A stretch of 64,000 nt of DNA from an uncultured Chromatiales bacterium (GCA_964557295.1 CAZKZP010000004.1:68667-132666); one strand, 5' to 3'. Positions 3,059-22,905 are shown, counted from the stretch's first letter. A program made the numbers and translations. The notes: a model not told the origin generated them from the sequence alone.

Positions 3059-4144
3059 CTATCTCGCCGCATGCCGGATTCGGCGCGCCAGTGATTTCAG
3101 ATCCTGAAACGTGATGGACTCGAGCTCACGATGCCGCGCCAGGAAGCGGTCCAGCTCGCGCAGCGAATACGGCGTGAGCGATTTGGGGTGGCCGATCACA
3201 TTGAAGATGCGCGGCGCGGCACCCGCGGGCAGTTGGCGGAATGCCCGTTCCAGCAAGGCGGCCTTGGCCCCGTCGATGGAGGCCACGCTCGAACTCGACA
3301 GCAGCAGCAGGCGCAGATAATAGCCGCCATCGGCCTGCATCGCCGCGCCGTCGCCGAAGGCCCGATGTGCCGCGCCGCCAAGTTTTTTCTGCACGATCAT
3401 CTTCCAGAAAAACGGCGGCATCACCGTTACAGCGCTGATCGGCACCTCGACGAACGTGCCGGCGTCATCTTCGACGAGCGGGTCCGTGGCAAAGCGCCAG
3501 GTGGACTTCTCCGGCATGCCGCTGAAGTCGAACCAACGCAGCGTATCCCGCGAGATGCCGTTTTGGTAGAGCGTGCTGTCCAGCCAGACGCCCGCCGCCT
3601 GCAAGGCCGGACCGATCCGCTCGAACGGCTGGATGCACCACCCGCCGGCGCGATAGGCAAAGACCGTATCGCCGACGTGCTCCATCAGCTCCGCCTTATA
3701 CGCAGTCACGATGCGGTTGATCTCCGCCTCGGAAAAATCCTGGAGACGATAACGCCGCGCATCGATACGCCACTTCTCGCCGTCGAACGCGCAGTCTTCC
3801 CAATGGGGATGGATGTGCAGCTGCACATCATGTCCCAGGGCTTTGAGGTCACTCAGCTGGCGGGATATCCGCGTGTACTCCCGGCCCAGTCCGGGATGGC
3901 GCGCCGCCTCGCGCTTCAAGCGCAACAGGAATCCCGCGTCGACGAACAAGGTCAGCCTCACCCCGTAGCGGTCGAGCACCGCCAGCAGCGCATCGATCGG
4001 ACGGATCAGGCAATGCTCCACCGAGCCGGTCTTCTCACCAAAAAACAGCTCGTAATCCAGCCCAAGAATCAACTTCACACTCATCAGAATTCCATCGGAA
4101 AAATCACCAGGGCAGATACTCTCACAGCCCCCGCACCCAGACAA
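3059..4144 (-). CDS. polysaccharide deacetylase-like protein (XrtA/PEP-CTERM-associated subfamily); alternative start at 4084 (MSVKL)
   Basis: 361 aa (341 aa from the internal ATG). The N-terminal LILGLDYELFFG motif and His-rich HIHPHWED resemble the PEP-CTERM-locus deacetylase family. Confidence 0.6.
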   Translation of the reverse strand: MSGCGGCESICPGDFSDGILMSVKLILGLDYELFFGEKTGSVEHCLIRPIDALLAVLDRYGVRLTLFVDAGFLLRLKREAARHPGLGREYTRISRQLSDLKALGHDVQLHIHPHWEDCAFDGEKWRIDARRYRLQDFSEAEINRIVTAYKAELMEHVGDTVFAYRAGGWCIQPFERIGPALQAAGVWLDSTLYQNGISRDTLRWFDFSGMPEKSTWRFATDPLVEDDAGTFVEVPISAVTVMPPFFWKMIVQKKLGGAAHRAFGDGAAMQADGGYYLRLLLLSSSSVASIDGAKAALLERAFRQLPAGAAPRIFNVIGHPKSLTPYSLRELDRFLARHRELESITFQDLKSLARRIRHAAR

Positions 4145-4364
4145 TCACCTCGGCCGATGCGCTGCCACAACACGTCGCCCGCCATCAAAGGCGCCGCTGG
4201 CCCGTGTGACGCCACCCACCGACAGCCTGTGATAAGACTCACAAAGCAAGAGGTTCACCCTGTTTTTCGTATAGCACCGAGGCGAAATGTGACTTGTGTC
4301 GCGCAAATTTGTACCGCGACCCACTATGGTAAGCAGCGCAATCCACTAGAGAGACACCCATATC

Positions 4365-6665
4365 ATGCTCAAGAAAATACCCATACTCATTTTCAGCGCA
4401 ACTCTGTGCGCTTGTGGTGGAGGATCGACAGGAAGTGAAAAAAATTCCGGACAGAATAGCCCCCAAGACAATGAGGAAATCGTCGCAGCCATGCAAGGCA
4501 GCGTCGGCGACGGCCCGATCCAGAACGCCGTCATCGCCATCCGCGACAAGAACGGCGCAGTGGTGCAAGCCCTCATGGGCAGCGGCACGGCCAGCTATGA
4601 AACCACGATCAACGTCAAACGAAGGCTCTATCCCCTGACGATCGAAGTCTCCGGCGGCACCGATCTCGTCACCGATACCGCCCCCGACTTCACCTTGTAT
4701 TCAGTCGCGCTCAAGCCGAGTGCATCGAGCACCTTCAACGTCAATCCGTTCACCACCTTCATCACCCGCATCGCGCAGAACATGCCGGGCGGCATTAACA
4801 CCACCAACGTACAAACCGCCACAGATACCGTATTGGCGAATCTGCACGCGGGACTGGATACCACGCTCATCTCCGACACCATTGGTCAAACTGTCGACGC
4901 CAACACGATCGCGGTGATGGTCAAGGCGAGCGAGTCCGTGGGCGAAATCGTGCGCAGAACGCGCGATGGCATTCGGGCAAAAGGCCTGGACGTCACGGGC
5001 GATGACATCGTCGATGCGCTCTCGGCCGACCTCGTCGATGGCAAGATCGATGGCCGCGGCGCTACCGGTGCCGACAACCGCATCGCCGCCGTCGCCAACC
5101 TGGTCACCGGCCAGGTTCTGCTCGAAGTGGTGCGCAACCGCCTGAACGTCAACGGCGCCGAAGCGACCGTGCGCATGGACAACGCCATTATGGCCACACA
5201 TCCCGGCAGCACTAAACTGACCGGCTCGGTGGCCATTACCGGCGAAATCATTGATCAGTCCAAACGTATCGTCGATGTCGTCAACACCATTACCCCGAGC
5301 ACTACATTGGTCGAGATCTCGAAACAGCTTGCCACACTTGCGCCCAATAGTTCCGCCAGTGACGCAGACCGGACTCTGCCAGACGCTGCCAGCGGCGCGC
5401 TCGACGGCGCCATTCAATATGCCCTGCAAGCCGATGCTACCGATCTGAAGGCGATCAATGATGTCGTGCCAGGGCCGCTCCCGACGCAAACGCCTGCGCC
5501 GACCGCAACACCCACTCCGACCCCGAGGGCCACACCAACGCCTGCGCCGAGCGCGGCACCCACGCCGACACCTGCGCCGATCATCGTGCCGGGACCTGGT
5601 CCGACTCTGACGCCCAAGCCGACAGCGACGCCCTCACCGACACCCAAGCCAACGGCGACACCCTCACCCACGCCCAAGCCGACAGCGACGCCCTCACCCA
5701 CGCCCAAGCCAACGGCGACGCCCTCACCGACGCCCAAGCCAACGGCGACGCCCACGCCTGCACCAGGCCCCACTCAAACGCCGAAGCCATCACCTACGCC
5801 CACTCCGGCGCCTCAGGCGGTAGCCCCGGTGCTCAATTCCGCAACCGTTAAAGGAACGGATATTGTACTGGCCTGGTCCCAGGGCAACCCGACACCCGAT
5901 GGTGGCTATGATCTCTTCATCGACAATACCGACACCGGCAGCAAATATCGCACGACCGCCCTATCGCTCACCCTGAGCGGCTTGGATGTATCGGTAGCGC
6001 ATTGCTTCAAGGTCGAGTCCCGGTATGTCGCGCTGAACCAATTCCTGCCCTCGAACGAGCGCTGCACCACACCGGTGGTCACTCCGCAGAATGCAGCGCC
6101 CACCCTCAGCGGCACCCCCGCTGGCAGTGTCGCGGCGGGATCATACTACCTGTTCACGCCGAAGGCATCCGACGCCAATGGCGACACCCTCACCTTCAGC
6201 GTCAGCAACAAGCCTGCTTGGGCCATGTTCGACACCGCCACCGGCAAATTGTCCGGCATCCCGAATGCAGCCAATGCCGGCACCGCCAGCAACATCGTGA
6301 TCACCGCCTCAGATGGCAAGGCCAGCACATCGCTTCCCGCCTTCGCCATCACGGTGACCACTTCAAGCACCGGCGGTGGCAGTGGCAGCGGCAGCGGCAG
6401 CGGCAGCGCCACACTGTCATGGAGCACTCCTACCACCAAGGAAGATGGCAGCCCGATGCCCATGTACGAAATCGCCGGTTATCGCGTCTATCGCGGGACG
6501 GCTCCGGACAAGATGACCGTCATATCAGACATCAAAAACAACACCACGACATCGTATACCGCCACAGCGCTCACGAGCGGGACTCATTACTTTGCCGTAA
6601 CCACATATGACGTCAACAACATCGAAAGCTCACTCTCAAGCGTCATGAGCAAGACGATTCCGTAG
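4365..6665 (+). CDS. modular surface lipoprotein with Pro/Thr-rich tandem-repeat linker, two FN3-like domains, a putative Ig (cadherin-like) domain and a (GS)n linker
   Basis: 766 aa. The N-terminal [21 protein letters not shown] shows a lipobox. A PT-rich region [10 protein letters not shown] is repeated about five times. A putative Ig-like stretch is TLSGTPAGS...[33 protein letters not shown] is followed by an FN3-like C-terminal domain ([10 protein letters not shown]...YRVYRGT...[10 protein letters not shown]). A strong terminator lies immediately downstream. Confidence 0.8.
5610..5758 (+). repeat. in-frame 30-bp tandem repeat (about 4.8 copies) encoding ([10 protein letters not shown])n
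   Basis: The unit acgcccaagccRacRgcgacRccctcaccS repeats head-to-tail. The antisense ORF 5414..5773 ([10 protein letters not shown] repeats) is its shadow. Confidence 0.85.
6372..6407 (+). repeat. hexanucleotide microsatellite (ggcagY)n encoding the (GS)n linker
   Basis: The sequence is ggcggtggcagtggcagcggcagcggcagcggcagc, in frame inside CDS 4365..6665. Confidence 0.8.
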
Positions 6666-6685
6666 AGCCTCCCTCCTTCGGCTCG

Positions 6686-6720
6686 AGAGCAGACAATGCA
6701 TAATTGTCTGCTCTTTTTTT
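6686..6720 (+). terminator. Rho-independent terminator
   Basis: A perfect 12-bp stem (agagcagacaat / attgtctgctct) with a 5-nt loop is followed by a T7 run, starting 21 nt after the stop of CDS 4365..6665. Confidence 0.8.
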
Positions 6721-6934
6721 ATTTATCCCATGCCGCATTTCCCGAGGCTGCCCTGAGCGGCAAAGCACTCGATCCAAGAAACATTTGCCCCCTCCAGCGA
6801 CACTCCCTCGCACGCAGGCAGGCTTGGGATGACGGCATCATGGACACCCCGGAGGTAGTGCAGCGCATCGTGCTGTTACCGAGGAAATCAATAATGGGCA
6901 CTTCTAATAATTCGTCGCACCGGCGAAGGCCGGT

Positions 6935-6985
6935 GTCCAGATCTTTTAAAACACTGGATTCCGGCATTCGCCGGAATGACAAAAT
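6935..6985. repeat. interspersed repeat family 3 copy (gtccagatcttttaaaacactggattccggcattcgccggaatgac)
   Basis: The GTCCAGATYTTTYAAAMC..CTGGATYC core is shared with 11611-11650. It contains the hairpin ttccggc-att-cgccggaa. Confidence 0.5.
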
Positions 6986-7372
6986 TTGAATTTTTAGAGG
7001 TGCCCTAATGCATTAGCGCTTGATTATATCCCGCTCATCCTGGCCTTATCGCCTCGAATCCCGGAGTCCCATCTATGCACCCACTCACCCAAACTACGGT
7101 TTTTTTTGTATCCATGGACGCCATGTTTTTCTATAATCGGGCTTCCCCCTGTTTTATAGAAAACGCTTTCCGTCACTGAATCATGGAAGGCACAAACCGC
7201 TCATCGCGCGGCTGCCGTTTTGTTGTGTGATACAACTCACAACTCATTGATGCTGAATACCATTTTTGCGGAAGAGTTAACACTATTGCATCTAACCTTT
7301 CCTACCGCCGGTCGATACAATTACACAACTTGTCGTACAAATGCGCTTTTGCAGTTGCAGAGGAAGTGAAAA

Positions 7373-7840
7373 ATGAGATCGAGCATCGCAAGCAACATTT
7401 TGAAACTCGTGGCACTGGGAAGCATCACCTTGGCCCTCACTGCCTGCCAGGGTGGACCCTCGGCGAGCAACGAAACCACACCGAATAACACTAACAATGT
7501 GGGCGGCACCGGCAACACTGGTGGTTCTGGATCCGGTTCAGGATCAGGCTCGGGATTGAACATCAGCAAGTCATCGGCGACGCTCAGCTGGTCAGCCCCG
7601 CTGACGGATGAAACTGGCGCCCCCATCAACCTTTATCAACTCGGTGGCTACAAGGTATACCTGGGCAGCAGCGCCGACACCATGACCCCGGTCGTGGATC
7701 TCGCAGACCCTGCCACCACGGAATACACCCTGACCGGCCTGAGCAACGGCACTTATTACATGGCAGTGACCGCCTACGACAACGACCTGATAGAAAGCGC
7801 GCTTTCCACAGTTGTTGAAATCAACGTCAACCATTCTTGA
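7373..7840 (+). CDS. small lipoprotein consisting of lipobox signal peptide, Asn/Thr/(GS)n linker and a single FN3-like domain
   Basis: 155 aa. The signal peptide MRSSIASNILKLVALGSITLALTACQGG carries a lipobox. [11 protein letters not shown] is followed by an FN3-like domain (SATLSWSAPLTDE...YKVYLGS...TYYMAVTAYD) homologous to the C-terminal domain of CDS 4365..6665. Confidence 0.75.
   Translation: MRSSIASNILKLVALGSITLALTACQGGPSASNETTPNNTNNVGGTGNTGGSGSGSGSGSGLNISKSSATLSWSAPLTDETGAPINLYQLGGYKVYLGSSADTMTPVVDLADPATTEYTLTGLSNGTYYMAVTAYDNDLIESALSTVVEINVNHS
7523..7555 (+). repeat. microsatellite encoding the (GS)n linker
   Basis: The sequence is ggttctggatccggttcaggatcaggctcggga, in frame in CDS 7373..7840. 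Confidence 0.7.
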
Positions 7841-7924
7841 TAAACATATTTCCAGGGCGATGCGCGGACTATACTTCTAGCGAATGGTCCCATATCGCCC
7901 AGCCCCCCACAGGAGATCAAAGAG

Positions 7925-9622
7925 ATGAATAAACTTACCAGCGCAACCTGGCTTCTGGGCCTGACCATGCTCGGTTCAAGCGCCGCCCATGCGTATACCC
8001 CACCCATCGGCATTCCAGCACCTTCCTTCGGCATCGATGAAACCGCCCCGGCACAGCCTGCGGCCTGGCCCAGCGGCGAAGCTGCCGGATTCTACTATGT
8101 CGACAAATCCCACCCATCAGCCACTGACACTGGCAACTCGTACGGCTATCCCAACAAGCCTCGACTGACTATTCCGAGAACCACATTTGGCCCAGGCGCT
8201 TACATTGAACTGCACGGGGGAGAATATAGTGGAAGCCTAGGCATGCTCACCTTCGATTGCCGCAAGGAAAACCCTTGCTGGCTGAGAGGTGCCAGCGCAA
8301 GTGTAATGCCGACAATTTCCGGGAACTTTACGCTGGATGCCACTTACCTGATTGTAGAGAATCTCGATTTCAATGGAGGCACAGGCGGCAGTATCGATAT
8401 AGTCAGCGATTCGACTTATGTGTCTGTGCGGCACTCAAAATTCCGCAACAGGGCTTTTGTAAGCAACACCGCCGCAATTGGCATCACACCAGCGCTTGGA
8501 AAAAAATCTCACGACATCGTAGCCTATAAAAATGAGTTCAGCGCGCTTGGTGACTATACGGCAACAGTGGATCTCGATTTTCATGCGATCAACCCGACCC
8601 TCTGGGGGCGTGACAGCACTACTGAGTTATTCAATGTGTGGGCACTTGAAAACCATTGTTACCGCCTAAGCGGCGATTGTGTTCAAGTGAATGCTGGTAA
8701 TTGGACCGACTCTTATAAATATCTGCATCATGTCTATATAGGAAAAAATGTAGGCCATGAAGGACGTCAGGGTCCATTTGGCGTCAAACAATCAAGTGAT
8801 GTAATAATTTCTCAAAACACAGCCTATGGATCGCGCCAACACGGCCCACAAGCAGGCAATGGGATTGGGTTTCAATACGGCCCCAATAATTTATGGATTA
8901 TCTTCAACGATATATCCGATTCTAACTATGGCATTCGGCAAACGGATACCTCCACCCCCTTCCCAAACAACAAGATCTATATTGTCGGAAACGTAATTCA
9001 TAACATTCATCCTGAAGCTAGCATCACCTACAACCCCAACGATGCCTGGAGACCTGGGGTCGCCATATCCTTGTGGCATGGCAACCTGCAACGCTTCATC
9101 GTGGACAACACCATTTATGATGTTCATGGCGGCATTACAGCCATCTATGATGGCCCATTGACCATTTCAAACAACATTATTTCTAATATTCACGATCAGG
9201 ACTATCACTTATACATTGCCCATCCAGCTCGACCAAATCCAACTGCAGATGCCTCTATCGACAGCGGCCTGTTCTACGACCCCGAGCTCGGCAACGCCAA
9301 AATTCGCTGGGAAGGTGGAAATGGTGATTTGCATAACACCCTGACGTCCTTTAAAGCTGCGTATGGGTTATGCGCTGACTGTTCAGTAGGCAATCCCGAC
9401 TTTCTAGATCCAGCGAATGGAAAGTTTGATCTGCAAAAAACATCCGCGGCTATTAATAAAGGCAAAGATCAATCAGTCTACGACACATTTTTCAGTCTAT
9501 ATGGCATAAACATCGAAAAGGACTTCCACGGCCAATCTCGCAAGATTGGATTAAAACAGGACTTCGGTGCATTTGAGGTAGGCCTAGCGCCTACTGCACC
9601 AAGTAATTTTACAGTAAAATAA
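7925..9622 (+). CDS. secreted right-handed parallel beta-helix protein (pectate-lyase-fold polysaccharide lyase/hydrolase candidate), paralog 1
   Basis: 565 aa with a Sec signal peptide MNKLTSATWLLGLTMLGSSAAHA. It contains multiple PbH1-like repeats (NLDFNGGTGGSIDI, IISQNTAYG, GNGIGFQYGPNNLWIIFN, IVGNVIHNIH, IVDNTIYDVHGGI, ISNNIISNIHD). It ends with an FN3-like first strand, APTAPSNFTVK. GC is lower than in the locus core. Confidence 0.8.
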   Translation: MNKLTSATWLLGLTMLGSSAAHAYTPPIGIPAPSFGIDETAPAQPAAWPSGEAAGFYYVDKSHPSATDTGNSYGYPNKPRLTIPRTTFGPGAYIELHGGEYSGSLGMLTFDCRKENPCWLRGASASVMPTISGNFTLDATYLIVENLDFNGGTGGSIDIVSDSTYVSVRHSKFRNRAFVSNTAAIGITPALGKKSHDIVAYKNEFSALGDYTATVDLDFHAINPTLWGRDSTTELFNVWALENHCYRLSGDCVQVNAGNWTDSYKYLHHVYIGKNVGHEGRQGPFGVKQSSDVIISQNTAYGSRQHGPQAGNGIGFQYGPNNLWIIFNDISDSNYGIRQTDTSTPFPNNKIYIVGNVIHNIHPEASITYNPNDAWRPGVAISLWHGNLQRFIVDNTIYDVHGGITAIYDGPLTISNNIISNIHDQDYHLYIAHPARPNPTADASIDSGLFYDPELGNAKIRWEGGNGDLHNTLTSFKAAYGLCADCSVGNPDFLDPANGKFDLQKTSAAINKGKDQSVYDTFFSLYGINIEKDFHGQSRKIGLKQDFGAFEVGLAPTAPSNFTVK

Positions 9623-9741
9623 TCTCCGCGTTGGGCAAGGATGCCCTTGCCCAGATCGTCTGCCCCGCGCGCACCCCACACACCAGATACCAGCTCTAAC
9701 TTTCAGAGTATGATTCCCAGTCCCAGCAGAAGATTTCAACA

Positions 9742-11427
9742 ATGACAAAACATAACACAGCAACCTGGCTTCTGGGCCTGACCATGCTCGGTTCAAGCGC
9801 CGCTCATGCGTATACCCCGCCCATCGGCATTCCAGCGCCCGCGTTCGGCATCGATGAAACCGCCCCGGCACAGCCTGCGGCCTGGCCCAGCGGCGAAAAG
9901 GCCGGGTTCTACTACGTCGACAAGTCCCATCCTTCGGCGACAGACACCGGCAACACATACGGCTATCCCAACAAGCCCCGGTTGACAATTCCGAACACCA
10001 CCTTTGGGCCTGGGACTTACGTTGAGCTGCACGGGGGGACGTATTCCTCAAACATGAGCCTGAACTTCAACTGCACTCAGGCAGCCCCCTGCTGGGTCAG
10101 AGGCGCCAGCGCCACAACCATGCCGACAATCACCGCATCGATGAGCATTAATTCCAAATATTTGATTGTGGAGAACCTCGATTTCAACGGCGGGGTTGGT
10201 GGTGCGTTGAACGTGACGGGTACGTCACAATATGTATCCATCAGGCACTCCAAGATCCGCAACAGGGCGCATCCCACTGGTGCTACCGCCGCCATCGGCC
10301 TCATTCCCGCCCCTGGCCAAAAAGTGTCAGATGTCGTGATCCATAAGGTTGAGTTCAGCGATCTCGGCGACTGGTTACGCCTGGACGATCTGGATTTTCA
10401 CGGTGTCAATCCGAGCCTCTGGGGACGTGACAGCACCGCCGAGCTTTCCAATGTGTGGATTCTTGATAGCCAATGCTTCCATGTGAGCGGCAACTGCGTG
10501 CAGGTCAATGCCGGCAACTGGGCCGATAGCTGGAAATATCTCCACCACGTCTATATTGGTCGGAACGTCTCCCATGCCGGCCGACAGGCAGGTTTCTGGT
10601 CCAAGCAGGCACGGGATGTCATCATCTCGCAGAATACCGTCTATGATAACCGAGCGCACGGCCCCCAACCCGGAGACGGCATCGGCTTCCAATATGGTCC
10701 GGACAACCTATGGATCATCTTCAATGAGATTTACAACTGCAATTACGGAATCCGGCAGTCGGATACTGGCACCAGCGCCAGCACTCACAAGGCCTATATT
10801 CTCGGAAATCTGATCTACAACATTCATCCAGAAGATGTCGCCGCCTACAAGCCGAATGACGGATGGCGGCAAGGACTCGGGATCACCTTGTGGCATGGCA
10901 ATATGCAGCGTCACATCGTCGACAACACCATCTATGATGTACATGGTGGCATTAACACGATCTATGACGGCCCAGTGTCCATGTCAGGGAACATCATTAC
11001 AAACATTCACGATGCAGATTATCACATCAGCAGCTCGCACTCCGCGCGCAGCGGAAACGCATCAATCGACAGTGGGCTGTTCTATGACCCGGAACTGGCC
11101 TCAGCCCGTATCAACTGGAACTGGGCAGATTACACCAGCCTGTCAGCCTTCAAAAGTGGTACGGGGAATATACAATGCAGCGGCTGCGAAGTCGGCAATC
11201 CTGCATTCGTCGACCCGACAACCGGAAAGTTTGACCTGCAAAAAACCTCCTCGGCCATTAACAAAGGGAAGCTGCATTCAGCGTATGACACTTTCTTTAC
11301 GCTCTATGGCATAGACATCAAAAAGGACTTCGCAGGCAGGACTCGCGTACTGGGATTGAAGCCGGACTTCGGAGCCTTTGAGGTGGGTGTAGCCCCTACT
11401 GCGCCGAGCAACTTTACAGTCAAATAG
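9742..11427 (+). CDS. secreted right-handed parallel beta-helix protein, paralog 2 (tandem duplicate of 7925..9622)
   Basis: 561 aa, colinear with paralog 1. The first roughly 170 nt are about 90% identical at DNA level and diverge thereafter. It has the same signal peptide, the same PbH1 repeats and the same C-terminal APTAPSNFTVK. Confidence 0.8.
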   Translation: MTKHNTATWLLGLTMLGSSAAHAYTPPIGIPAPAFGIDETAPAQPAAWPSGEKAGFYYVDKSHPSATDTGNTYGYPNKPRLTIPNTTFGPGTYVELHGGTYSSNMSLNFNCTQAAPCWVRGASATTMPTITASMSINSKYLIVENLDFNGGVGGALNVTGTSQYVSIRHSKIRNRAHPTGATAAIGLIPAPGQKVSDVVIHKVEFSDLGDWLRLDDLDFHGVNPSLWGRDSTAELSNVWILDSQCFHVSGNCVQVNAGNWADSWKYLHHVYIGRNVSHAGRQAGFWSKQARDVIISQNTVYDNRAHGPQPGDGIGFQYGPDNLWIIFNEIYNCNYGIRQSDTGTSASTHKAYILGNLIYNIHPEDVAAYKPNDGWRQGLGITLWHGNMQRHIVDNTIYDVHGGINTIYDGPVSMSGNIITNIHDADYHISSSHSARSGNASIDSGLFYDPELASARINWNWADYTSLSAFKSGTGNIQCSGCEVGNPAFVDPTTGKFDLQKTSSAINKGKLHSAYDTFFTLYGIDIKKDFAGRTRVLGLKPDFGAFEVGVAPTAPSNFTVK

Positions 11428-11572
11428 CCCACTCTATTGGACCATGCTCTAAGCCAGATTCATTATCATCTATATCTCCGTATGGGAATCCGGAGGATAA
11501 AGTGTTACCATTTTCCCGCGTGATGCGTGGAATCCCAGCTCGTCACGACCTTGCTCAGTGATCAGAATATAA

Positions 11573-11612
11573 GGCGCCGCATCTAGATGTGGCGCCCCCA
11601 CGAAGGCGGGGG
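11573..11612. repeat. two consecutive GC-rich hairpins (ggcgccgcatctagatgtggcgcc; cccccacgaaggcggggg)
   Basis: Perfect or near-perfect palindromes seen directly in the sequence, in the intergenic region after CDS 9742..11427. They may act as a terminator or RNA-stability element, but there is no T-run. Confidence 0.4.
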
Positions 11613-11650
11613 TCCAGATTTTTCAAACCGCCTGGATCCTGTCTTCGAGG
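11611..11650. repeat. interspersed repeat family 3 copy (ggtccagatttttcaaaccgcctggatcc)
   Basis: It matches the core of the 6935-6985 copy. Together they bracket the 7373-11427 three-gene segment. Confidence 0.45.
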
Positions 11651-11780
11651 GAATTGAGAGGTTCTGGTATGCAACCTGATAGTCTATCTGACCACTGTGC
11701 AAATCTGATTAAAATTTACCAGGTACCTCATGTGAGCATCCAGTGGTGATGGCTATTTTAGGAATTTATGAGAACTCCGC

Positions 11781-13463
11781 ATGGAAAACACCACCTTTAA
11801 AATACTTAGAAAGTCATCCCATTATCTCATATCGGCTGGATTTCTTCTTCTCTACCTAGCCCTGCCTTCGGCCAATCATAGCTACGCAGATGATAGCCTT
11901 CGGTGGGCTTATGGTATCACGCAAGAAGGCGGCATTATCAACTCTCACCATCTGATTATTAACGCCTTAAGAGAAGCATTTATTCTATTTAACAGTCTAT
12001 TTGATAGCGTATCACCATCAAGCTTCTTAACTATCTACTCAAGTCTCTGGGGTGGCACCGGATTGCTCCTTCTAAGCTTCTTACTAAAAGAAGTTGGATT
12101 GCATAACTCCCGTATAGTCGGCGTCACTCTCTGCGGAATATCTGTTGGTTACTGGTCATACTCTATCGTGGGAGATGTTTATGTGCCCGCAACAGCAAGC
12201 TTGGTGGGAGGCACACTATTCTTTCTGAAGGGATTGAAGCGCAACCCTAGTGCAACTAAACAAGCATACGCCCTTCTAAGCGTCTTGTTTTTTCTCACTG
12301 CAATTATGCATCATCAGGCTTTTTTTGTTTTTGTAATAGGACTTGGATTTATCGGGCTTTTATACAGCAACACACTTAGCAAACAAGGCCTGACTTATGG
12401 CCTCATAATATCAGTAGCGGTCGGGCTTGCGTGCATTGCAATTTATGTTTCTGCTCACAAATTCTCTACCCCTCCGCATGAGGAGTCTCCCTCCACGCTC
12501 CAATTCATGTCCGGCTACGCCTCGAGCTTTACAGCTTACCCAGACATGAAAGACTTATCGCCAGCAACACTTATCAAAGGCGCTGGCGGATTTGCTCGCT
12601 CGCTTGTAAGCACAAACATCTTATTCAGCAATCATTCCTTTGTGGAGAACATTCAAAACAAATTCCCCTATCGTCACATGCTAAGCCAAGTCTATTTAGC
12701 AGAGCAAATGACGTCTTTGCAAATTACAGTCGCCTGGATAGGCCTGTTTATAACCGTATTGATTGCAGCACCGCTCACCATATTCGCACTCTGGTGCTGC
12801 GCAAAAAACCCATCTGCTGCAAAAAAAGTGCTTATATTTTCCGTTGTACCTCAGATGTTATTTTTTTTGTGGTGGGAATCAATATCTGACGAATTTTGGA
12901 TTTGGATACTTCCCTTCTGGGCAATGACAATTTGTTTCGCCGTTGAACGGCTCAAGAAGAACGGCACCCTTATTGCTATTGTATTTTCGGCAGCACTTTT
13001 AGCGGCCAATCTTTGCGCCTCGATACTACCTTACAGCAACTCCAGCTCAGATATTGACCAACGCAACAGCGAATACATCAATACCGTTAAACCTGGCGAT
13101 CTGCTGATATCATTTGATGAAATAATTACAGCACACTTGATAAAACTCTCAGAAAGCAAAATTGGCTTCGAATATATCAATCTATTTGGACCGGCAGAAA
13201 AAGGGCGTGACTTAGAAATAGACAAAATAATCATGCGCGCGGAAGCAGCCATACGGCGCGGTAACTCAATCCATCTTGGCCCCTACTTGATAGATCCCCC
13301 ACGATCATATATGGCACTAGTAGAGCTGCAAACGAAAGACTTCTCCCAACAAAGAGATTTATTGATACAGAAACTTATGCTGCTGAGTCGGGACAGCTTA
13401 AAATTTCACCACCCAAATATAACAATAGATGGGGCATTCTCGAATAGATTGGCGCCCGAGTGA
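11781..13463 (+). CDS. polytopic integral membrane protein of unknown function (possible GT-C-type glycosyltransferase or polymerase accessory protein)
   Basis: 560 aa with about 12-13 hydrophobic segments and a roughly 140-aa hydrophilic C-terminal domain. It is AT-rich (low-GC island). Its stop overlaps the GTG start of the next gene (GTGA). Confidence 0.65.
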   Translation: MENTTFKILRKSSHYLISAGFLLLYLALPSANHSYADDSLRWAYGITQEGGIINSHHLIINALREAFILFNSLFDSVSPSSFLTIYSSLWGGTGLLLLSFLLKEVGLHNSRIVGVTLCGISVGYWSYSIVGDVYVPATASLVGGTLFFLKGLKRNPSATKQAYALLSVLFFLTAIMHHQAFFVFVIGLGFIGLLYSNTLSKQGLTYGLIISVAVGLACIAIYVSAHKFSTPPHEESPSTLQFMSGYASSFTAYPDMKDLSPATLIKGAGGFARSLVSTNILFSNHSFVENIQNKFPYRHMLSQVYLAEQMTSLQITVAWIGLFITVLIAAPLTIFALWCCAKNPSAAKKVLIFSVVPQMLFFLWWESISDEFWIWILPFWAMTICFAVERLKKNGTLIAIVFSAALLAANLCASILPYSNSSSDIDQRNSEYINTVKPGDLLISFDEIITAHLIKLSESKIGFEYINLFGPAEKGRDLEIDKIIMRAEAAIRRGNSIHLGPYLIDPPRSYMALVELQTKDFSQQRDLLIQKLMLLSRDSLKFHHPNITIDGAFSNRLAPE

Positions 13464-14950
13464 AAATCGCTGCTTTAACTTTTTTTATAACACTTTTCTC
13501 TCTTTATGCCTGGAAAGATTGGTATAAATCGCTTTGCGCACTAATCTTTCTTATGGCTTTTCTCGAGCGCCCGGACATTCCAAAGACCATTCTTGATATT
13601 CCGGGCTTTAATCCCTGGAATTTCCTTCTTGCAGTCGTCTTACTGGCATGGCTAGCATCGAAACGGCGAGAAGAGCTGAAATGGGATATGCCTCCCAAAA
13701 TCACATTTCTACTACTTTTTTATTTTTTTGCTATCACTGTTGCAGTTGCCCGCATGCTTAGCGACATTAGCGGCATTACCGAATTTCGATTGGCCGCAGG
13801 ACAGGAAGCTCCAACAAAGTCGGGCTTGATAATTGATTATTATGTCAATTGCATTAAATATACAATTCCAGGGTTATTGCTTTTTATCGGCTGCAACAGT
13901 CGCAGCCGACTAAACTGGGCGCTGGCCGCACTGGCGGGCATGTATTTATTTCTTGCACTCCAAGTCATCAAATGGATGCCCTTAGGGTTGCTCACCGATG
14001 GGGTGGAATTGAGCTATCGGGCATTACGTGTGCTAGACAGAGAAATAGGCTATCACCGTGTCGATTTGTCAATGATCCTTGGAGGGGGGGCTTGCGCCAT
14101 TTTTGCCGCCAGAATATTCGCAAAAAACCAAATTCAATACTTCATCATAATATCTGTTAGCGCTATTACAGCACTCAGCCAGGTGCTTACGGGCGGCCGA
14201 ATGGGTTATGTCACTACTGCGATTATTGGATTAATATTCGCTGCCTTTCGTTGGCGAAAGCTGTTTCTGTTACTACCAATTATGGTCGTCCTGATAACGA
14301 TCTATATGCCCTCGGTTGTAGACCGCTTTACACAAGGTTTCGGAGGCGAATTTGCCACTGAGGAAGCACCACCAACTGTCGTTGCTGAAACGCTCAACGA
14401 GGGCGATGCGGGGCTGTATGCCATGACATCAGGACGCAACTTTGCGTGGCCATTTGTACTAGATAAGATAGCAGAAGCGCCACTTTTCGGTTACGGTTGC
14501 TTAGCGATGCAGAACCTCGGCATTAGCACACACCTATTGCTCAATTATGGCGAGCTTTTTCCGCACCCCCACAACGCTTATCTAGAGCTGATATTTGATA
14601 CGGGATTGTTTGGAGCAATCCCCGTTTTTATCTTATTTGCGCTACTGACAAAATTCAGTTTTTCACTCTTCCGCGACTCAAGCAGCACTATATTCATCGC
14701 CGTAGGCGGTGGAGGACTCGCAATCATCTTGGCCCAACTTATCGCCAGCCTTGGCGCGCAATCTTTCTATCCGCGCGAAGGCACTGTTGCCCTTTGGTGT
14801 GCAATCGGACTGGTGCTGCGCGTTTACATTGAGAGAGCAAAAGCCATCACCATGCGACCCAGCAACTCCGCGCCCATCGATGATCTAATGTGGGGACGTA
14901 AGTTAGCTGAAAAAAATACGTCTATGCGGTTTAACAAACGGTCGCAATAG
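13460..14950 (+). CDS. O-antigen ligase/Wzy-like polysaccharide polymerase family membrane protein
   Basis: 496 aa and multi-TM. It carries a Wzy_C-type motif, YGCLAMQNLGISTHLLLNYGELFPHPHNAYLELIFDTGLFG. The GTG start is overlapped by the upstream stop. It lies in the low-GC region. Confidence 0.75.
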   Translation: MKIAALTFFITLFSLYAWKDWYKSLCALIFLMAFLERPDIPKTILDIPGFNPWNFLLAVVLLAWLASKRREELKWDMPPKITFLLLFYFFAITVAVARMLSDISGITEFRLAAGQEAPTKSGLIIDYYVNCIKYTIPGLLLFIGCNSRSRLNWALAALAGMYLFLALQVIKWMPLGLLTDGVELSYRALRVLDREIGYHRVDLSMILGGGACAIFAARIFAKNQIQYFIIISVSAITALSQVLTGGRMGYVTTAIIGLIFAAFRWRKLFLLLPIMVVLITIYMPSVVDRFTQGFGGEFATEEAPPTVVAETLNEGDAGLYAMTSGRNFAWPFVLDKIAEAPLFGYGCLAMQNLGISTHLLLNYGELFPHPHNAYLELIFDTGLFGAIPVFILFALLTKFSFSLFRDSSSTIFIAVGGGGLAIILAQLIASLGAQSFYPREGTVALWCAIGLVLRVYIERAKAITMRPSNSAPIDDLMWGRKLAEKNTSMRFNKRSQ

Positions 14951-15067
14951 AGAGAATATACGCGTCTCACAACATCAGTGCGGCTGGCCTTACATCACCC
15001 AATCAATTTTTTCCGAGTTTTCCAACCCCCACATGACTGATGAGTTGCGTTAATCTGAAATATCACT

Positions 15068-16207
15068 TTAGTTACTTACGCAGAGTTCGCCAAATGTTTT
15101 TTCGAATTTTGGCATGGCAACGTCTAACGAATGGTTCCTCTGAAAATATTCGATGCAATTATGCGACACTGACTCATGCTTTTTGGGCGAAGATAAAATG
15201 CCGGTTATCCATTCAATTACTTCATCTGGGGTTCGTGCAAAACCGCCCAAGCCATTTTTCTCGATCACAGAATCAGGGTCCACCGTTGACACCACGGGCA
15301 GTCCGACGCTCCATGCTTCCAAAAACACGTTTGGAAACCCTTCAAAGGTGGAGGTGCAACAAAGCACGGCCGCTCTCCGGTAGAATTTTGCTAAATTACC
15401 GTGGTCAATCCGTCCATGTATGACGACATTGTCCATCTCACGTGCGCGGCTGAGCAGTCCGCTTGAATATTTAGTGTCCATGTTCGCCGCGCCAACAATA
15501 TCAAATTTTACGTGCTTGAGCTTTTCTGCAACATCCAGCATCCATTCAAGCCTTTTCTCAGCGCTCAATCTTCCCACCCACAGCACATGGTGCTGCTCTG
15601 CCATTTCATTATTCGTCAGCGTTGCACCTCCAATTCCCGCCGACGGCATGCTGATAACTGTCGAATGTTTGCCGAAATTTCTATTCAACAACTGCTGTTG
15701 CTTGTTAGTTTGCACAATCACCACATCGGTTCTTTTGAGGCCATAGCGATATAGCACCCGCTCGCGCAGCGGACGAAGGCTTGGCAGGGACGATTCGCAA
15801 TCTGGATCACTGGCAACAGAGTACACAACTTTTTTTCCATGTCGATGCGCCCAATTGACAACCTGCCCCAAACCCATGTCTCCGCAGTTATAATAATAGA
15901 TGTCAGCATCGGCCTTTTTCATGGCTTTTATCAAACTTGTCCAGCGCGGATATATAAATCGAACCACTGGAATGCCGTCATCGCGATCACACATTTTGTA
16001 CACGCGAACGCCATCCACCAGCTCACCATCTGGCTGCCCTTCATCCCATGTGATCATGCTTACCTTGTACCCGTGACTGGCGAGCCACTTAGCCATGAGG
16101 GACTGCTGTCGCTCAATCCCGCCCGCATGCCTTTTGTTATTTCCAACCAATGCGCCATACGCATGGTGCGCAACAAAGCATATTGATGGCTTGCTCAATC
16201 CACACAC
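15068..16207 (-). CDS. glycosyltransferase family 4 (GT-B, retaining)
   Basis: 379 aa with the GT4 signature EGFPNVFLEAWSVGLPVVST. Confidence 0.85.
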   Translation of the reverse strand: MCGLSKPSICFVAHHAYGALVGNNKRHAGGIERQQSLMAKWLASHGYKVSMITWDEGQPDGELVDGVRVYKMCDRDDGIPVVRFIYPRWTSLIKAMKKADADIYYYNCGDMGLGQVVNWAHRHGKKVVYSVASDPDCESSLPSLRPLRERVLYRYGLKRTDVVIVQTNKQQQLLNRNFGKHSTVISMPSAGIGGATLTNNEMAEQHHVLWVGRLSAEKRLEWMLDVAEKLKHVKFDIVGAANMDTKYSSGLLSRAREMDNVVIHGRIDHGNLAKFYRRAAVLCCTSTFEGFPNVFLEAWSVGLPVVSTVDPDSVIEKNGLGGFARTPDEVIEWITGILSSPKKHESVSHNCIEYFQRNHSLDVAMPKFEKTFGELCVSN

Positions 16208-16295
16208 TCCGATAACTTAATCAATCTCTAAACCATCCCGCACCCACGGAACAATGGCAGCGAATAAGCGCGATTGCTTCAGATCATGCCAGTAG

Positions 16296-17453
16296 TTATT
16301 GCGCTTTTGAATCCATGATCGCTCGATACATGGCGATAGTTCTCTGCGCCACTGACTCGGGATGATACTTGGCAGCCGCATCCTGCCGCCCATTTTCCGC
16401 GATCTTATTCCGCATGCCCGCATCGGTCAGCAGCTCGATCAATCTTTGCGCCAATCGGTCATGGTCGTCAGGGCCGACAAGAAAGCCTGTTCTCCCTTCC
16501 TCGATCATGTAGGGCATACCGCACACATTGGACGAAATGACCGGCACGCCAGCCGCCATGGCCTCTGCGATTGCCATCGGCGCATTCTCTTGATACGAGG
16601 GCAACACAAACACACTGGCTTCACTCAACTCCTTGCGCATCTGCTGTTGACTCAGCCTGCCCAGCAGGTGCACTCGGGTCTCAAGGCCATTCTGAACGAT
16701 GATATTTTTTATCTCACGATAATATTCAACCTCTCCGCCTGGCTCGCCTGCTATGTGCAGCTGCGCATCGACTCCAGCCGCAATCACTTTTATAAAAGCC
16801 TTGATTAGCCCAAGCGCATTTTTTCGTGGATTCAACCACCCGGCAAAGAACACTCTTCCCGCCTGCTCATTGCGCTCGATGGCGAAAAAGTCGCGCGAAA
16901 TTGCATTTTCTATTTCATAGACTTTTGCAGATGTCAGCGGCTCAATCTCTTTTCTTACGTAGGGATTAATGGATACGATGTGATGTTGTCGGGACAATCC
17001 AAATGACTCCGCCCGCCGCCATAACAACGAGCGTAGCCGCCAGAACGGCTTTCGCTCGGCGCCCAGATTGAGGCTGTCGAATCCGTGCACTGTGAATACC
17101 GACGGCACCCTTAGCTTATGCACGCCCAATCCATAGGTTTCCTGAAAATGCACAATATCGGGATTCAATGAGGACACATACTGCTTAAGCAGCCGCTCCC
17201 CTGGCCCGAAGAAAATGTCAAACATCATCGGCCAACGAGTTTTCGGTAATCTGTGGACAGTAATATTCTCGACTTTCTCTACTGAGATAGCATGACGACC
17301 CTTCTCAAAGGTCACCACATGCAACTCGTGTTCACCCGATGAAAGCAGCCCACGCAATAATCCAATGGTCGCGGTTTCGACACCACCACGTGGATTATCC
17401 ATGCTGGCAGGCATGCGGCTAAAAATCACTACTCTCATCGTTTTCCTTAGCAA
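16296..17453 (-). CDS. glycosyltransferase family 4
   Basis: 385 aa (an alternative start lies 5 codons in). It carries the GT4 signature ENAPMAIAEAMAAGVPVISSNVCG. Confidence 0.85.
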   Translation of the reverse strand: MLRKTMRVVIFSRMPASMDNPRGGVETATIGLLRGLLSSGEHELHVVTFEKGRHAISVEKVENITVHRLPKTRWPMMFDIFFGPGERLLKQYVSSLNPDIVHFQETYGLGVHKLRVPSVFTVHGFDSLNLGAERKPFWRLRSLLWRRAESFGLSRQHHIVSINPYVRKEIEPLTSAKVYEIENAISRDFFAIERNEQAGRVFFAGWLNPRKNALGLIKAFIKVIAAGVDAQLHIAGEPGGEVEYYREIKNIIVQNGLETRVHLLGRLSQQQMRKELSEASVFVLPSYQENAPMAIAEAMAAGVPVISSNVCGMPYMIEEGRTGFLVGPDDHDRLAQRLIELLTDAGMRNKIAENGRQDAAAKYHPESVAQRTIAMYRAIMDSKAQ

Positions 17454-17587
17454 AGTTCCTGTTCGGATTTCAGCGCCTCAGGGGGCTCTGTTGAACTTCT
17501 AGCGTCACTCCGGCGCATGTTGGGCTCTTGGGCGCCTGCGGTGGCAACCCCTGTTTTTCTCACGCCCCAAGAATTGGCCGGCTCACG

Positions 17588-19516
17588 CTACAGCCCACGC
17601 AAGTCGCTAAGCTGATAATTATTCCCGTCCATCACCCTGTCTTCGATATACATGCGGTACCAGACCTCGAGCGCGATGATACTCCAGAGCTGCAAAGAGT
17701 AATCTCGCGCGCCGCTCATGTGTTCCGCAATCAGTTTTTGCACAGCTCCGCCGTCGAGCAATCCCGTTCGATTCACTTGCTCCGGCGACAGGAAGGCGCT
17801 GATAAATTCTTTCAGCTCCCCCTTGAACCATTGGCCGATTGGAGAATCGAAACCGACTTTCTTCCGCTCGACAATCTGCTCTGGCAAGTACTTCTTGGCG
17901 ACTTCCTTCAAGATGTGTTTGGTTCGCGTGCCTTTGAGCCGGTATTGATTTGGCAGCTTGGCGGCATACTCGACCAGCTTGTAATCACACAGAGGTGAAC
18001 GCACCTCAAGGCTGTTGGCCATGCTCATGCGATCCATGTAGGTCAGCTGATATTCGGGGAGGTAGCCCTCCACCTCAAGTGATGTGGCCCGCTGGAAGAT
18101 AGTCATTTCTGATGATCCGCCCATCAAGTGATCTCGCAAAAAACTATCGCCGGCAGGATTGTCCGCCAAGCGCCGGCAGTTTTCAGAGATCAGTGCACTG
18201 CGTACATCCGGATTCAGCAAGCTCACCCAGGATAGATAAGCCTGGTCTGGCGGCAGATCCGCACCGGTCACAAATCGCTTGACCCGCTTGGCGAAACGGC
18301 TTCCGGTCGTGGACTCTGGCCATTTCATCGCGATGCGCTCGACGATCTGGGCTCGGACGAATTTCGGCAGGCGCTGATAGTATTCGAGATAACGCAAGCC
18401 TTGATGCTTGGGATAACCGTAAAACAGCTCATCGCCACCTGTGCCGCCGAGCGCGACCTTGAGCCGCTTGCGCACGAATTCGCACAACAGATACACCAAA
18501 ACTGATGTCGGCTCGCCGTGCGGTTCATCATAGTGCCAGATGATTCGCGGCAACAATTCCATGCTGGAGTGCGCTTCGAGAATCAACTCATGGTGCTGTG
18601 TGCCCAGGTGGTCGGCGACGCGTTGGGCATGACTCAGCTCATTGAATCCGGCGGCCTCACCACGATAGCCAACGGAAAATGTCTGCACTTGCGCTTCGTG
18701 CTTTTTCATCAGCGCGCAGATCAGTGAGGAATCGATACCGCCGCTGAGAAAGGCCCCCACCTCCACATCACTCTTGAGGCACAGCCGGATGGCTTCATCG
18801 AGCTCATGCTCCAGGCCGGCAAGCGCGTCACGATAGGAAATGTCGAGCGTTTTTGAAAAATCATTGTACCAATAGCGCTTCAGTGCACAACCGGTTTGTT
18901 CGCGCCAGATCAGCATCTCGCCGGGCTGCAGGCGTGATATTTCTTTATAGAATGTCTTGGGTCCCGCCACATATCCGGCAGCGAGAAAATCACAGACGGA
19001 TTGCGCCTCGACCGTACGGCTGGACAATGCCTGGAGAATGGTCTTCATTTCCGACCCGAAAAATACCCGGCCCTCTTGCTGAGCGTAATAAAGAGGCTTT
19101 TCACCGATGCGGTCACGCGCCAGGATCAGCTGGCGCTGTTTGGCATCCCAGAGCGCAATACCGAACATGCCGCGCAGATGATGCACGAAGTCCAGACCGT
19201 AATCCTCATACAGATGGACAATGGTTTCGGTATCGGAGTGCGTCTTCAAGGTGTGGCCACGCTGGATAAGCTGCGCCCTCAATTCCTCGAAGTTGTAAAT
19301 CTCGCCATTGAAGACCACCCAGACATCCTGGGTTTCATTCGTGATGGGCTGATTGCCGGATTTCAGATCGATGATGGCCAGCCGGCGCATCGCCAGCCCG
19401 ACGCCTGGTGCCGTGTAATAGCCGGCATCATCGGGCCCGCGATGCGTCATGCTGTTGCACATCGCGCGCAGCAGATTGCCGTCATCCAAGCCTACATATC
19501 CAGTGATGCCGCACAT
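17588..19516 (-). CDS. asnB: asparagine synthase (glutamine-hydrolysing) family amidotransferase, exosortase-locus type
   Basis: 642 aa. An N-terminal MCGITG class-II glutamine amidotransferase nucleophile is followed by the PP-loop SGGIDSS. It sits within the EPS operon. Confidence 0.9.
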   Translation of the reverse strand: MCGITGYVGLDDGNLLRAMCNSMTHRGPDDAGYYTAPGVGLAMRRLAIIDLKSGNQPITNETQDVWVVFNGEIYNFEELRAQLIQRGHTLKTHSDTETIVHLYEDYGLDFVHHLRGMFGIALWDAKQRQLILARDRIGEKPLYYAQQEGRVFFGSEMKTILQALSSRTVEAQSVCDFLAAGYVAGPKTFYKEISRLQPGEMLIWREQTGCALKRYWYNDFSKTLDISYRDALAGLEHELDEAIRLCLKSDVEVGAFLSGGIDSSLICALMKKHEAQVQTFSVGYRGEAAGFNELSHAQRVADHLGTQHHELILEAHSSMELLPRIIWHYDEPHGEPTSVLVYLLCEFVRKRLKVALGGTGGDELFYGYPKHQGLRYLEYYQRLPKFVRAQIVERIAMKWPESTTGSRFAKRVKRFVTGADLPPDQAYLSWVSLLNPDVRSALISENCRRLADNPAGDSFLRDHLMGGSSEMTIFQRATSLEVEGYLPEYQLTYMDRMSMANSLEVRSPLCDYKLVEYAAKLPNQYRLKGTRTKHILKEVAKKYLPEQIVERKKVGFDSPIGQWFKGELKEFISAFLSPEQVNRTGLLDGGAVQKLIAEHMSGARDYSLQLWSIIALEVWYRMYIEDRVMDGNNYQLSDLRGL

Positions 19517-19582
19517 TCTAGTCTTTCACTCCAAATCAGTTCATCAATATTCAACTGCCGCAAGAAACAGGGCCGCCGACAC

Positions 19583-20827: not shown

Positions 20828-20925
20828 TGTATGTTCATCGTATGCAATTGCAACTTCATCGGCGACGACATGTCGGTCGTGTTTTTTTATTAACCCGGCG
20901 ATTAAATATATCTGCCACGTATCTT

Positions 20926-21062
20926 AAAAGCGTCCCTTCTCCCTCCGGGAGAAGGATAGGATGAGGGAGTAAATTAATGTGTTAATCCCCCTCACCCTAG
21001 CCCTCTACCCTAAAGGGCATAAATCCCGGAGGGAGAGGGAACAGTACACCAGATCCATTTTG
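20926..21062. repeat. interspersed repeat family 1 copy (hairpin ccttctccc-tccg-ggagaagg, core ggatgagggagtaaattNatg...ccccctcaccctagccctct, second hairpin)
   Basis: An 85-bp core is shared at about 90% with 26996-27095. A partial third copy (ttctccctgagggagaa) lies at 21090-21140. Confidence 0.6.
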
Positions 21063-21262: not shown

Positions 21263-21297
21263 CAGATGTAATTGATCGCCGAGTTAATACTAACCAA

Positions 21298-22878: not shown

Positions 22879-22905
22879 AACGATCGTTCGGACGCTCTCG
22901 ATAAT

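Follow-up and report, generated by a model that had tools for sequence, protein, structure and literature searches.

The 64,000-nucleotide stretch of DNA analysed here (the window) comes from an uncultured Chromatiales bacterium (GCA_964557295.1, CAZKZP010000004.1:68667-132666) and carries six plus-strand genes, g1 to g6, beside a minus-strand array of XrtA-associated extracellular polysaccharide (EPS) genes. We consider it probable that the region 7.4-17.5 kb, from g2 through g6 into the adjoining minus-strand glycosyltransferase genes GT4a and GT4b, is the repeat-unit-specific part of one Wzx/Wzy-dependent, XrtA-associated EPS locus, with g1 as a separately transcribed, co-regulated neighbour. 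An earlier note, made from the sequence alone, had described the six genes as an accessory cassette of two lipoproteins sharing a C-terminal FN3 domain, two secreted beta-helix enzymes, a polytopic membrane protein and a Wzy-like polymerase. All six open reading frames (ORFs) are present as described (Table 1), and the protein types were borne out by lipoboxes, signal peptides, structure prediction, hydropathy and family searches. The position, the cohesion and the accessory character given to the block did not stand in the same way.

Candidate polymerase, gene neighbourhood and composition

The gene that decides how the block is read is g6. Its product matches Wzy_C (PF04932) with 61.5 bits (cut-off 31.7, E 1e-16), has at least eight hydrophobic segments and is the only Wzy_C protein in the window. 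Because no other protein of this family accompanies the Wzx-like, PCP and OPX components of the locus, g6 is likely the repeat-unit polymerase, judging from family membership and context. The remainder of the Wzx/Wzy pathway is encoded on the minus strand without a second Wzy candidate, which places g6 in the core of the locus and not among accessory genes. A search of NCBIfam at E<=0.01 assigned g6 to no family, including TIGR03097, and a PDB sequence search returned nothing meaningful. For g6, the flippase partner is probably the Wzx-like protein of the array, which matches MatE weakly (E 0.002).

The preceding gene, g5, encodes a protein with the GT-C membrane fold, whose best structural matches include Pmt4, Pmt1/2, PglB, AglB and STT3 and whose identity to solved GT-C structures is 7-12%. 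It gave no Pfam match even at E<=10 and no NCBIfam match. The motif Y35-A36-D37-D38 is at least 90% conserved among 20 sequences and lies, in the predicted topology, in the first external loop, after a first transmembrane segment (H4-27) with a positively charged N-terminus. That g5 represents a very rare family, as 20 word-indexed matches had implied, was dropped when an exhaustive search with a profile turned up 144 representatives at E<=1e-30, rising to 1570 at E<=1e-3. The four contexts of g5 relatives that were examined all lie in other EPS clusters, where GT4 genes are joined by a varying selection of Wzy_C, WecG, heparinase-like, sulfotransferase and AsnB genes. In three of the four the g5 relative lies directly after a Wzy_C gene or a few genes from it (L082 8319-11668; L084 and L085 5011-11755). 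Together with the g5/g6 overlap, this proximity hints at a functional pairing of the GT-C enzyme and Wzy.

The end of g6 faces the end of the first minus-strand gene at 15068, so that the two strands are arranged tail-to-tail. The block was thought to lie upstream, at the head of the array; it is instead convergent with it and sits at its 3' distal end, the head being PrsK at 43641.

The neighbourhood of the beta-helix and Wzy genes recurs widely. We fetched 80 loci with a beta-helix homolog, one genome per species, of which 51 were at least 15 kb long. Within 10 kb of the beta-helix gene, these 51 loci contained homologs (E<1e-50) of GT4a in 15 cases, GT4b in 14, GT4c in 13, the Wzx-like protein in 10, g6 in eight, AsnB in eight, the sulfotransferase in five and the heparinase-like protein in five, as well as an exosortase in six (E<1e-10). 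The loci belong to Gammaproteobacteria, Desulfobulbaceae, Akkermansiaceae, Planctomycetota and Vicinamibacterales, at pairwise identities of 31-63%. Homologs of g6 with 42-70% identity adjoin beta-helix homologs in 11 loci, GT4a homologs with 42-58% identity flank beta-helix genes in several phyla, and Wzx-like homologs co-locate with them in 13 loci. Judged by gene neighbourhood, the EPS gene set to which the beta-helix protein and Wzy belong is conserved and widespread, and the description of the block as an accessory add-on does not fit a sole polymerase candidate whose companions are found together in EPS loci of several phyla.

A recurring set of a beta-helix protein, three GT4 enzymes and a Wzx-like protein was seen in the window (15068-30852) and in twelve fetched loci (L003, L005, L012, L014-L017, L025, L040, L053, L055 and L079). 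It variably adds Wzy, sulfotransferase, heparinase II/III-like protein, AsnB and exosortase, and extends over five phyla or classes. By its gene content this set may stand for a single, widespread and as yet undescribed chemotype of acidic EPS, which is possibly sulfated and amidated.

The content of guanine plus cytosine (GC) is 0.49 over 6666-17453 against 0.57-0.61 elsewhere, an atypical composition. The lower GC noted for the block was therefore real in part: the trough, at about 7.9-17.5 kb, crosses the strand switch and runs into GT4a and GT4b, but leaves out g1, whose composition is typical of the locus. GC per gene is 0.61 (g1), 0.56 (g2), 0.48 (g3), 0.55 (g4), 0.44 (g5, the lowest in the window) and 0.47 (g6), with 0.49 for GT4a and 0.51 for GT4b. 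At third codon positions (GC3) the values are 0.72, 0.67, 0.49, 0.66, 0.44 and 0.475 for g1 to g6, 0.52 for GT4a and 0.57 for GT4b; most flanking genes have 0.77-0.82, the XrtA regulatory and export genes 0.72-0.80 and the sugar genes 0.59-0.76.

A single close relative, Pseudomonadota MAG326 (GCA_040752855.1), was present in the databases searched. The cassette occupies the corresponding site there, again adjoining the flanking gene for a 361-amino-acid protein (81% identity), and shows the same GC dip. The gene order in this genome is 361-aa gene, two tandem copies of g1 (A and B, 73% and 66% identical to g1), g2 (73%), a single beta-helix gene, Wzy (70% to g6), a gene for a 549-aa membrane protein, GT4a and GT4b. 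The single beta-helix gene is the ortholog of g4 (88%, against 66% to g3), which makes g3 an extra copy in the window. In place of g5 stands the 549-aa protein, which is weakly PMT_2-like and non-homologous to g5; a distant homology was considered and rejected, since neither phmmer nor a g5-family profile gave a match. The GT4a counterpart is only 41% identical, with neighbours at 70-88%, and the GT4b counterpart 71%.

Since MAG326 shares both the synteny and the GC dip, the low GC is old and not a mark of recent transfer; the earlier note had taken it as a signature of horizontal exchange. An exchanged, strain-variable character can be granted to g5, to GT4a and to g3 as the extra copy, but not to the block as a whole. 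The comparison with relatives that the earlier note had proposed thus gave a divided answer, in that the cassette is syntenic in MAG326 and not absent from it, individual genes have been swapped or duplicated, and the GC content is low and not genome-typical. On comparative grounds we regard the cassette as old and syntenic, with individual parts exchanged.

Secreted beta-helix proteins, FN3 lipoproteins and shared operators

g3 and g4 carry signal peptides with cleavage after AHA (...AHA/YTPP), and the AlphaFold model of g3 is a right-handed beta-helix (pLDDT 91). The best structural matches of the model are polysaccharide lyases, hydrolases and epimerases, at sequence identities of 9-19%. 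While a plain PDB sequence search with g3 gave nothing meaningful, a profile-level similarity to PL6, limited to about 95 N-terminal residues, is its sole sequence-level PDB match, and that match is an enzyme. The Pfam model Beta_helix (PF13229, cut-off 25.9) scores 29.4 bits with g4 and, just below the cut-off, 25.4 bits with g3; the C-terminal segments of g3 and g4 reach 23.2 and 22.9 bits with the choice-of-anchor Q model NF041518, just under its cut-off of 25. An alignment of 26 beta-helix sequences with 36-69% identity has 40 invariant columns, many of them polar and on the central coils, among them D216, D218, H220, H268, H269, Y271, K288, N298, N328 and R390. Such a cluster of invariant polar residues is typical of an active-site groove.

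The first 50 codons of g3 and g4, with about 20 bp upstream (7905-8204 and 9722-10021), are 92% identical at the nucleotide level (third-position identity 0.86), compared with 55-79% in the remainder of the genes. This points to 5' gene conversion between the two.

The C-termini of the family are a matter of "choice of anchor" among the 120 homologs collected (P0001-P0120). GlyGly-CTERM-like tails occur in P0023, P0025, P0027, P0029 and P0033, dockerin-like modules in P0003, P0004, P0041, P0047, P0063, P0071 and P0100, and a full C-terminal FN3 domain in P0110, P0112, P0117 and P0120. A short tail of the form P-x-A-P-x-x-L/F-x-V, which resembles an orphan FN3 A-strand, is found in 58 of the 120, including g3 and g4 (...APTAPSNFTVK).

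The FN3 domains at the C-termini of g1 and g2 are 52% identical over 81 aa (E 2e-25) and score 23.7 and 27.9 bits, respectively, with Pfam fn3. g2 has a canonical lipobox, L-T-A-C(25), and g1 has L-C-A-C(17) with an unusual Cys at -2; both are probably outer-membrane lipoproteins. The statement that the secreted proteins of the block use lipobox or Sec signals was therefore confirmed for all four. g1 consists of an N-terminal domain of about 340 aa that matched no family and gave nothing meaningful in a PDB sequence search, a Pro/Thr-rich linker of about 100 aa, a He_PIG domain (38 bits) and the FN3 domain. In the linker-coding region 5484-5825, a 30-bp unit is repeated in tandem (4.8 copies, 89% matches) as part of a longer degenerate repeat; tandem repeats of this kind are prone to length variation.

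The g2 family comprises 45 small proteins. In 39 of them a lipobox is present, with a Gly/Ser linker, optionally a He_PIG domain and then FN3 behind it. All four contexts examined are EPS loci that contain glycosyltransferases together with exosortase, PrsR-like or PrsK-like genes; a beta-helix gene was called beside none of these four members. In the window g2 lies immediately upstream of g3, and it has the same adjacency to the beta-helix gene in MAG326. Over the fetched loci, an FN3 lipoprotein accompanies the beta-helix gene in about 7-9 of 80, and it can stand next to Wzy and away from the beta-helix gene, by about 3 kb in L003 and 9 kb in L005. FN3 lipoproteins as obligate partners of beta-helix proteins were therefore rejected as a rule. 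Relatives of g5 occur in none of the 80 beta-helix loci. Since the relatives of g5 and those of g2 each also turn up in EPS loci that lack the remaining parts, the block is not one co-inherited module, which speaks against the picture of one coherent six-gene system.

What connects g1 with the genes downstream is a pair of perfect CRP-type palindromes, one ahead of g1 and one ahead of g2. The window holds exactly these two, against 0.04 expected. Matching sites precede the g1 and g2 genes of MAG326, and about 200 bp upstream of g2 are conserved with that genome. Across the fetched loci (1.47 Mb) there are seven unique perfect sites (L001 1168, 3599 and 6494; L003 2512; L058 5979; L089 7520; L017 9927), five of them a short way upstream of an FN3-lipoprotein gene and one ahead of a beta-helix gene. 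This distribution suggests a CRP/Vfr/Clp-family regulon, and the sites are the best evidence that g1 belongs functionally with g2-g4.

The terminator-like hairpin directly after g1 indicates a separate transcription unit for this gene, and a weaker one in the 353-bp gap between g4 and g5, a match to the consensus only, probably separates g2-g3-g4 from g5-g6. The likely transcription units are then g1, g2-g3-g4 and g5-g6. A role of PrsR and RpoN in driving the plus-strand genes was considered, and the search for sigma-54 promoters (TGGCAC-N5-TTGCW, at most two mismatches) found no evidence for it: there were 28 matches where 37.8 were expected, and the upstream regions concerned had none.

The minus-strand array and the flanks

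The XrtA array at 15068-43641 does consist of 19 minus-strand ORFs, as had been claimed, with XrtA and Prs families above the NCBIfam cut-offs. It need not be the single operon it was called, because three intergenic gaps exceed 400 bp (20827-21298, 26939-27382 and 35406-35825). Beyond GT4a and GT4b the order from 17588 is AsnB-like amidotransferase, GT4c, Wzx-like protein, sulfotransferase, WecG/TagA, deacetylase, WecB and priming transferase, and then, up to 43641, heparinase II/III-like protein, TIGR03016 outer-membrane protein, tyrosine kinase, chain-length determinant, export protein, PrsT, XrtA-EpsI, PrsR and PrsK. The models matched include TIGR03007 (chain-length determinant), TIGR03018 (kinase), TIGR03027 (exporter) and TIGR03016. 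PrsK, PrsR, PrsT and the XrtA-type chain-length determinant, kinase, exporter and outer-membrane protein all exceed their cut-offs, with score/cut-off pairs for these seven families of 729/300, 701/503, 593/312, 547/279, 260/231, 229/180 and 162/91 bits. The XrtA-EpsI protein (38633-40180, minus strand) scores 230.7 bits with TIGR03109 (cut-off 208) and 110.6 bits with TIGR02914 (EpsI). XrtA is thus fused to an EpsI domain here; the XrtW model gives 222 bits against a cut-off of 425. The AsnB-like amidotransferase (17588-19516, minus strand) reaches 561 bits, below the TIGR03108 equivalog cut-off of 817, and is a divergent member.

Two of the large gaps share, within 20887-21077 and 27015-27369, a 45-nt direct repeat (20935-20979 and 27015-27059, 84% identical), and each contains a long inverted repeat, one with arms of 28 nt separated by 135 nt and the other with arms of 38 nt separated by 201 nt. 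By their appearance these are insertions resembling miniature inverted-repeat transposable elements (MITE) or repetitive extragenic palindromes (REP), or else shared regulatory elements. A 28-nt hairpin-containing sequence (ATCGCCATCTAAAGATGGC...) occurs twice with 96% identity, at 21233-21260 in the gap beside the Wzx-like gene and at 46310-46337 after a Lon-like gene.

No gene for a PEP-CTERM protein was found in the window, in agreement with the earlier note: a permissive regular expression for the tail, run over every stop-to-stop frame, gave only three matches, all in non-genic frames, which is a weak test. PEP-CTERM genes are usually scattered around the genome, so the lack of a cargo gene in 64 kb says little.

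Housekeeping genes bound the locus, with an HD-GAF protein and an AAA protein on the left and glycogen genes, G6PD and glucokinase on the right. Every genic-frame ORF of at least 95 aa could be accounted for, either by a function in EPS formation or as an envelope protein of unknown kind. A tRNA scan of the window found no tRNA gene, there were no flanking repeats around the region, and no integrase or transposase appeared among the Pfam and NCBIfam results for the window proteins. An Rfam scan of the whole window at gathering scores gave nothing, and the small ORFs inspected in the gaps showed nothing of note. The 361-aa flanking protein had no match in Pfam, NCBIfam or PDB sequence searches. 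Its gene adjoins the block in MAG326 as well, and in locus L006 it lies beside FN3, beta-helix and Wzy genes; from this context the conserved neighbourhood may extend beyond the left edge of the six-gene block.

Table 1 Positions of the features discussed, counted from the first nucleotide of the window.
Feature	Position	Strand	Basis or remark
361-aa flanking protein	3059-4144	-	adjoins the block
Perfect CRP-type palindrome TGTGA-N6-TCACA	4228-4243		centre 129 bp upstream of g1 start codon
g1, 766-aa lipoprotein	4365-6665	+	ORF, Pfam, lipobox
Intrinsic-terminator-like hairpin, then T run	6685-6715	+	13-pair stem just 3' of g1; kept in MAG326
Second perfect CRP-type palindrome	7226-7241		centre 139 bp upstream of g2 start codon
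g2, 155-aa lipoprotein	7373-7840	+	lipobox LTAC, Gly/Ser linker, FN3
g3, secreted right-handed beta-helix, 565 aa, PL6-like	7925-9622	+	AlphaFold model, profile similarity
g4, beta-helix paralog, 561 aa	9742-11427	+	67% identical to g3
Terminator-like hairpin, weaker	11594-11613	+	g4-g5 gap; consensus match
g5, GT-C-fold membrane glycosyltransferase, 560 aa	11781-13463	+	polytopic; GT-C fold
g6, Wzy_C protein	13460-14950	+	start overlaps g5 stop by 4 bp
GT4a glycosyltransferase	15068-16207	-	Pfam; in GC trough, convergent with g6
GT4b glycosyltransferase	16296-17453	-	Pfam; GC trough ends here
Rest of XrtA EPS array	17588-43641	-	NCBIfam and Pfam searches
Wzx/MOP-like protein, 526 aa	21298-22878	-	about 12-14 predicted transmembrane segments (hydropathy profile)

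Proposed pathway, alternatives and relation to known systems

Gene assignments and neighbourhoods were established by computation; the biochemical steps, substrates, reaction type and lipoprotein role are what we infer. In the pathway that we propose, a lipid-linked repeat unit would be built by the priming transferase, WecB, WecG, the GT4 enzymes, the amidotransferase, the sulfotransferase and the deacetylase, and would be flipped across the membrane by the Wzx-like protein. Polymerisation of the unit in the periplasm is the most likely role of g6. Translationally coupled to it, g5 probably works at the periplasmic face, where it would attach a side sugar taken from a polyprenyl-phosphate donor. 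The Sec-exported, PL6-like g3 and g4 probably cut or epimerise a uronate-containing polymer, in the sense of trimming, release or remodelling, and the FN3 domain shared by g1 and g2 has its most likely ligand at the envelope in the polymer itself or in an enzyme acting on it. Control of g1 and of the g2 unit by a regulator of the CRP/Vfr/Clp family would come on top of PrsK/PrsR control of the core. Low GC and gene replacements are what one expects of a serotype-like variable region of a polysaccharide locus.

Several points weigh against this proposal. Membership in Wzy_C does not separate a polymerase from a ligase or O-oligosaccharyltransferase, and g6 could be either. A GT2 polyprenyl-phosphate sugar synthase that would feed g5 was not seen in the window. 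The catalytic Glu-x-Glu...Lys / Arg motif of PL6 was not recovered in the g3 alignment; in a weak second aligned segment the PL6 motif GEMEIISLK falls opposite non-conserved g3 residues, and the beta-helix fold as such cannot tell lyase, hydrolase and epimerase apart. The lipoprotein role is drawn from gene neighbourhood alone, the transcription units from gaps and consensus hairpins only, and with a single close relative the variability is poorly sampled.

The idea closest to the earlier note, an autonomous, horizontally acquired glycan processing and anchoring system with FN3 adaptors for beta-helix enzymes, bolted onto a complete XrtA locus, appears unlikely to us. It would account for the GC3 trough over g3, g5 and g6 (0.44-0.57 against 0.72-0.82 elsewhere), for the extra low-GC copy g3 that has no counterpart in MAG326, for the replacement of g5 by an unrelated GT-C protein there, and for g2 directly upstream of a beta-helix gene in both genomes. 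However, the supposedly complete core would be left without its sole Wzy candidate, the trough takes in the minus-strand GT4a and GT4b and leaves out g1, and MAG326 carries the cassette in syntenic position with a GC content just as low. Nor do the missing tRNA gene, flanking repeats, integrase and transposase speak for acquisition, or the rare and sometimes distant company of FN3 lipoproteins and beta-helix genes for an adaptor system. A separate reading, in which the FN3 lipoproteins g1 and g2 act in trans as outer-membrane anchors onto which the orphan A-strand tail of the beta-helix enzymes docks, is a doubtful one that we would back only with great reserve, although it fits the relatives of g3 and g4 that bear their C-terminal anchors in cis where g3 and g4 have only the short tail.

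Protein O-glycosylation, with g6 as a PglL-like and/or g5 as a PMT-like enzyme acting on the linkers of g1 and g2 and perhaps on PEP-CTERM proteins, we also rate as rather improbable. Wzy_C includes PglL-type transferases, NCBIfam lists TIGR03097 as an exosortase-A-associated "O-glycosylation ligase" family, the structural matches of g5 include protein glycosyltransferases, and the Pro/Thr linker of g1 and the Gly/Ser linker of g2 could serve as acceptors. But g6 is not a TIGR03097 member, and the locus would lack a polymerase despite its PCP, OPX and Wzx-like parts. Moreover, the precomputed Pfam listings of four g5-family contexts contain no FN3 protein, and the Planctomycetota and Desulfobulbaceae loci with g6 homologs have no FN3 lipoprotein. 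That g3 and g4 are non-catalytic surface proteins, adhesins or a matrix scaffold of the PfbA or Vag8 type, is highly improbable in view of the 40 invariant columns with their groove-like polar cluster and of the enzymes that make up both the best structural matches and the only sequence-level one.

The repeat-unit-specific reading places the locus among the XrtA/PEP-CTERM EPS loci known from Haft's EpsH/exosortase system and the "zooglan" cluster of Zoogloea, with which it shares the XrtA-EpsI, Prs, PCP, kinase, exporter and outer-membrane genes. It differs from them in that g6 is not TIGR03097, the amidotransferase stays below its equivalog cut-off and no PEP-CTERM gene lies in the window. 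The epsSMASH preprint (doi 10.64898/2025.12.21.693542) outlines the same Wzx/Wzy-type logic for clusters of this type. Our literature searches found no description of this gene set. To our knowledge, the FN3 lipoproteins, the PL6-like beta-helix pair and the GT-C family of g5 lie outside the described XrtA component lists.

With the serotype-specific regions of O-antigen and capsule loci, whose variable regions also show low GC, the locus has in common the low GC3 of its polymerase, glycosyltransferase and modifying genes beside genome-like export and regulatory genes, and the replacement of transferases by non-orthologous ones between relatives with syntenic flanks. In contrast to them, it is split over two convergent strands and includes secreted enzymes and lipoproteins, a comparison made with one relative. 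AlgL and AlgG for alginate and RbmB for Vibrio polysaccharide have roles in trimming, release or remodelling, and g3 and g4 resemble these enzymes and the PL6 lyases in being exported and encoded within an EPS locus; they are set apart by their low structural-match identities, by the N-terminal stretch to which the PL6 alignment is confined and by the choice-of-anchor-Q-like segment. From GT-C enzymes such as ArnT, PMT, PglB/AglB/STT3, AftA and ALG12, g5 is separated by its low identity and the lack of any Pfam or NCBIfam model match.

In conclusion, this is a known kind of locus with three uncharacterised recurrent families and a conserved operator, useful for annotation, unsurprising to a specialist and not such as to overturn the current understanding. 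The reading of the locus is corrected in that the plus-strand block contains the probable polymerase and glycan-tailoring enzymes of the pathway and is not an add-on. If the trans-anchoring were true, it would, together with the CRP-type operator, amount to a new regulated tethering of matrix-remodelling enzymes in exosortase-type EPS systems. The families flagged in environmental EPS loci, namely PL6-like beta-helix proteins with interchangeable anchors, a GT-C family without a Pfam model and small FN3 lipoproteins with a CRP-type operator, are reasonable targets for studies of the matrix polymers of flocs and biofilms.

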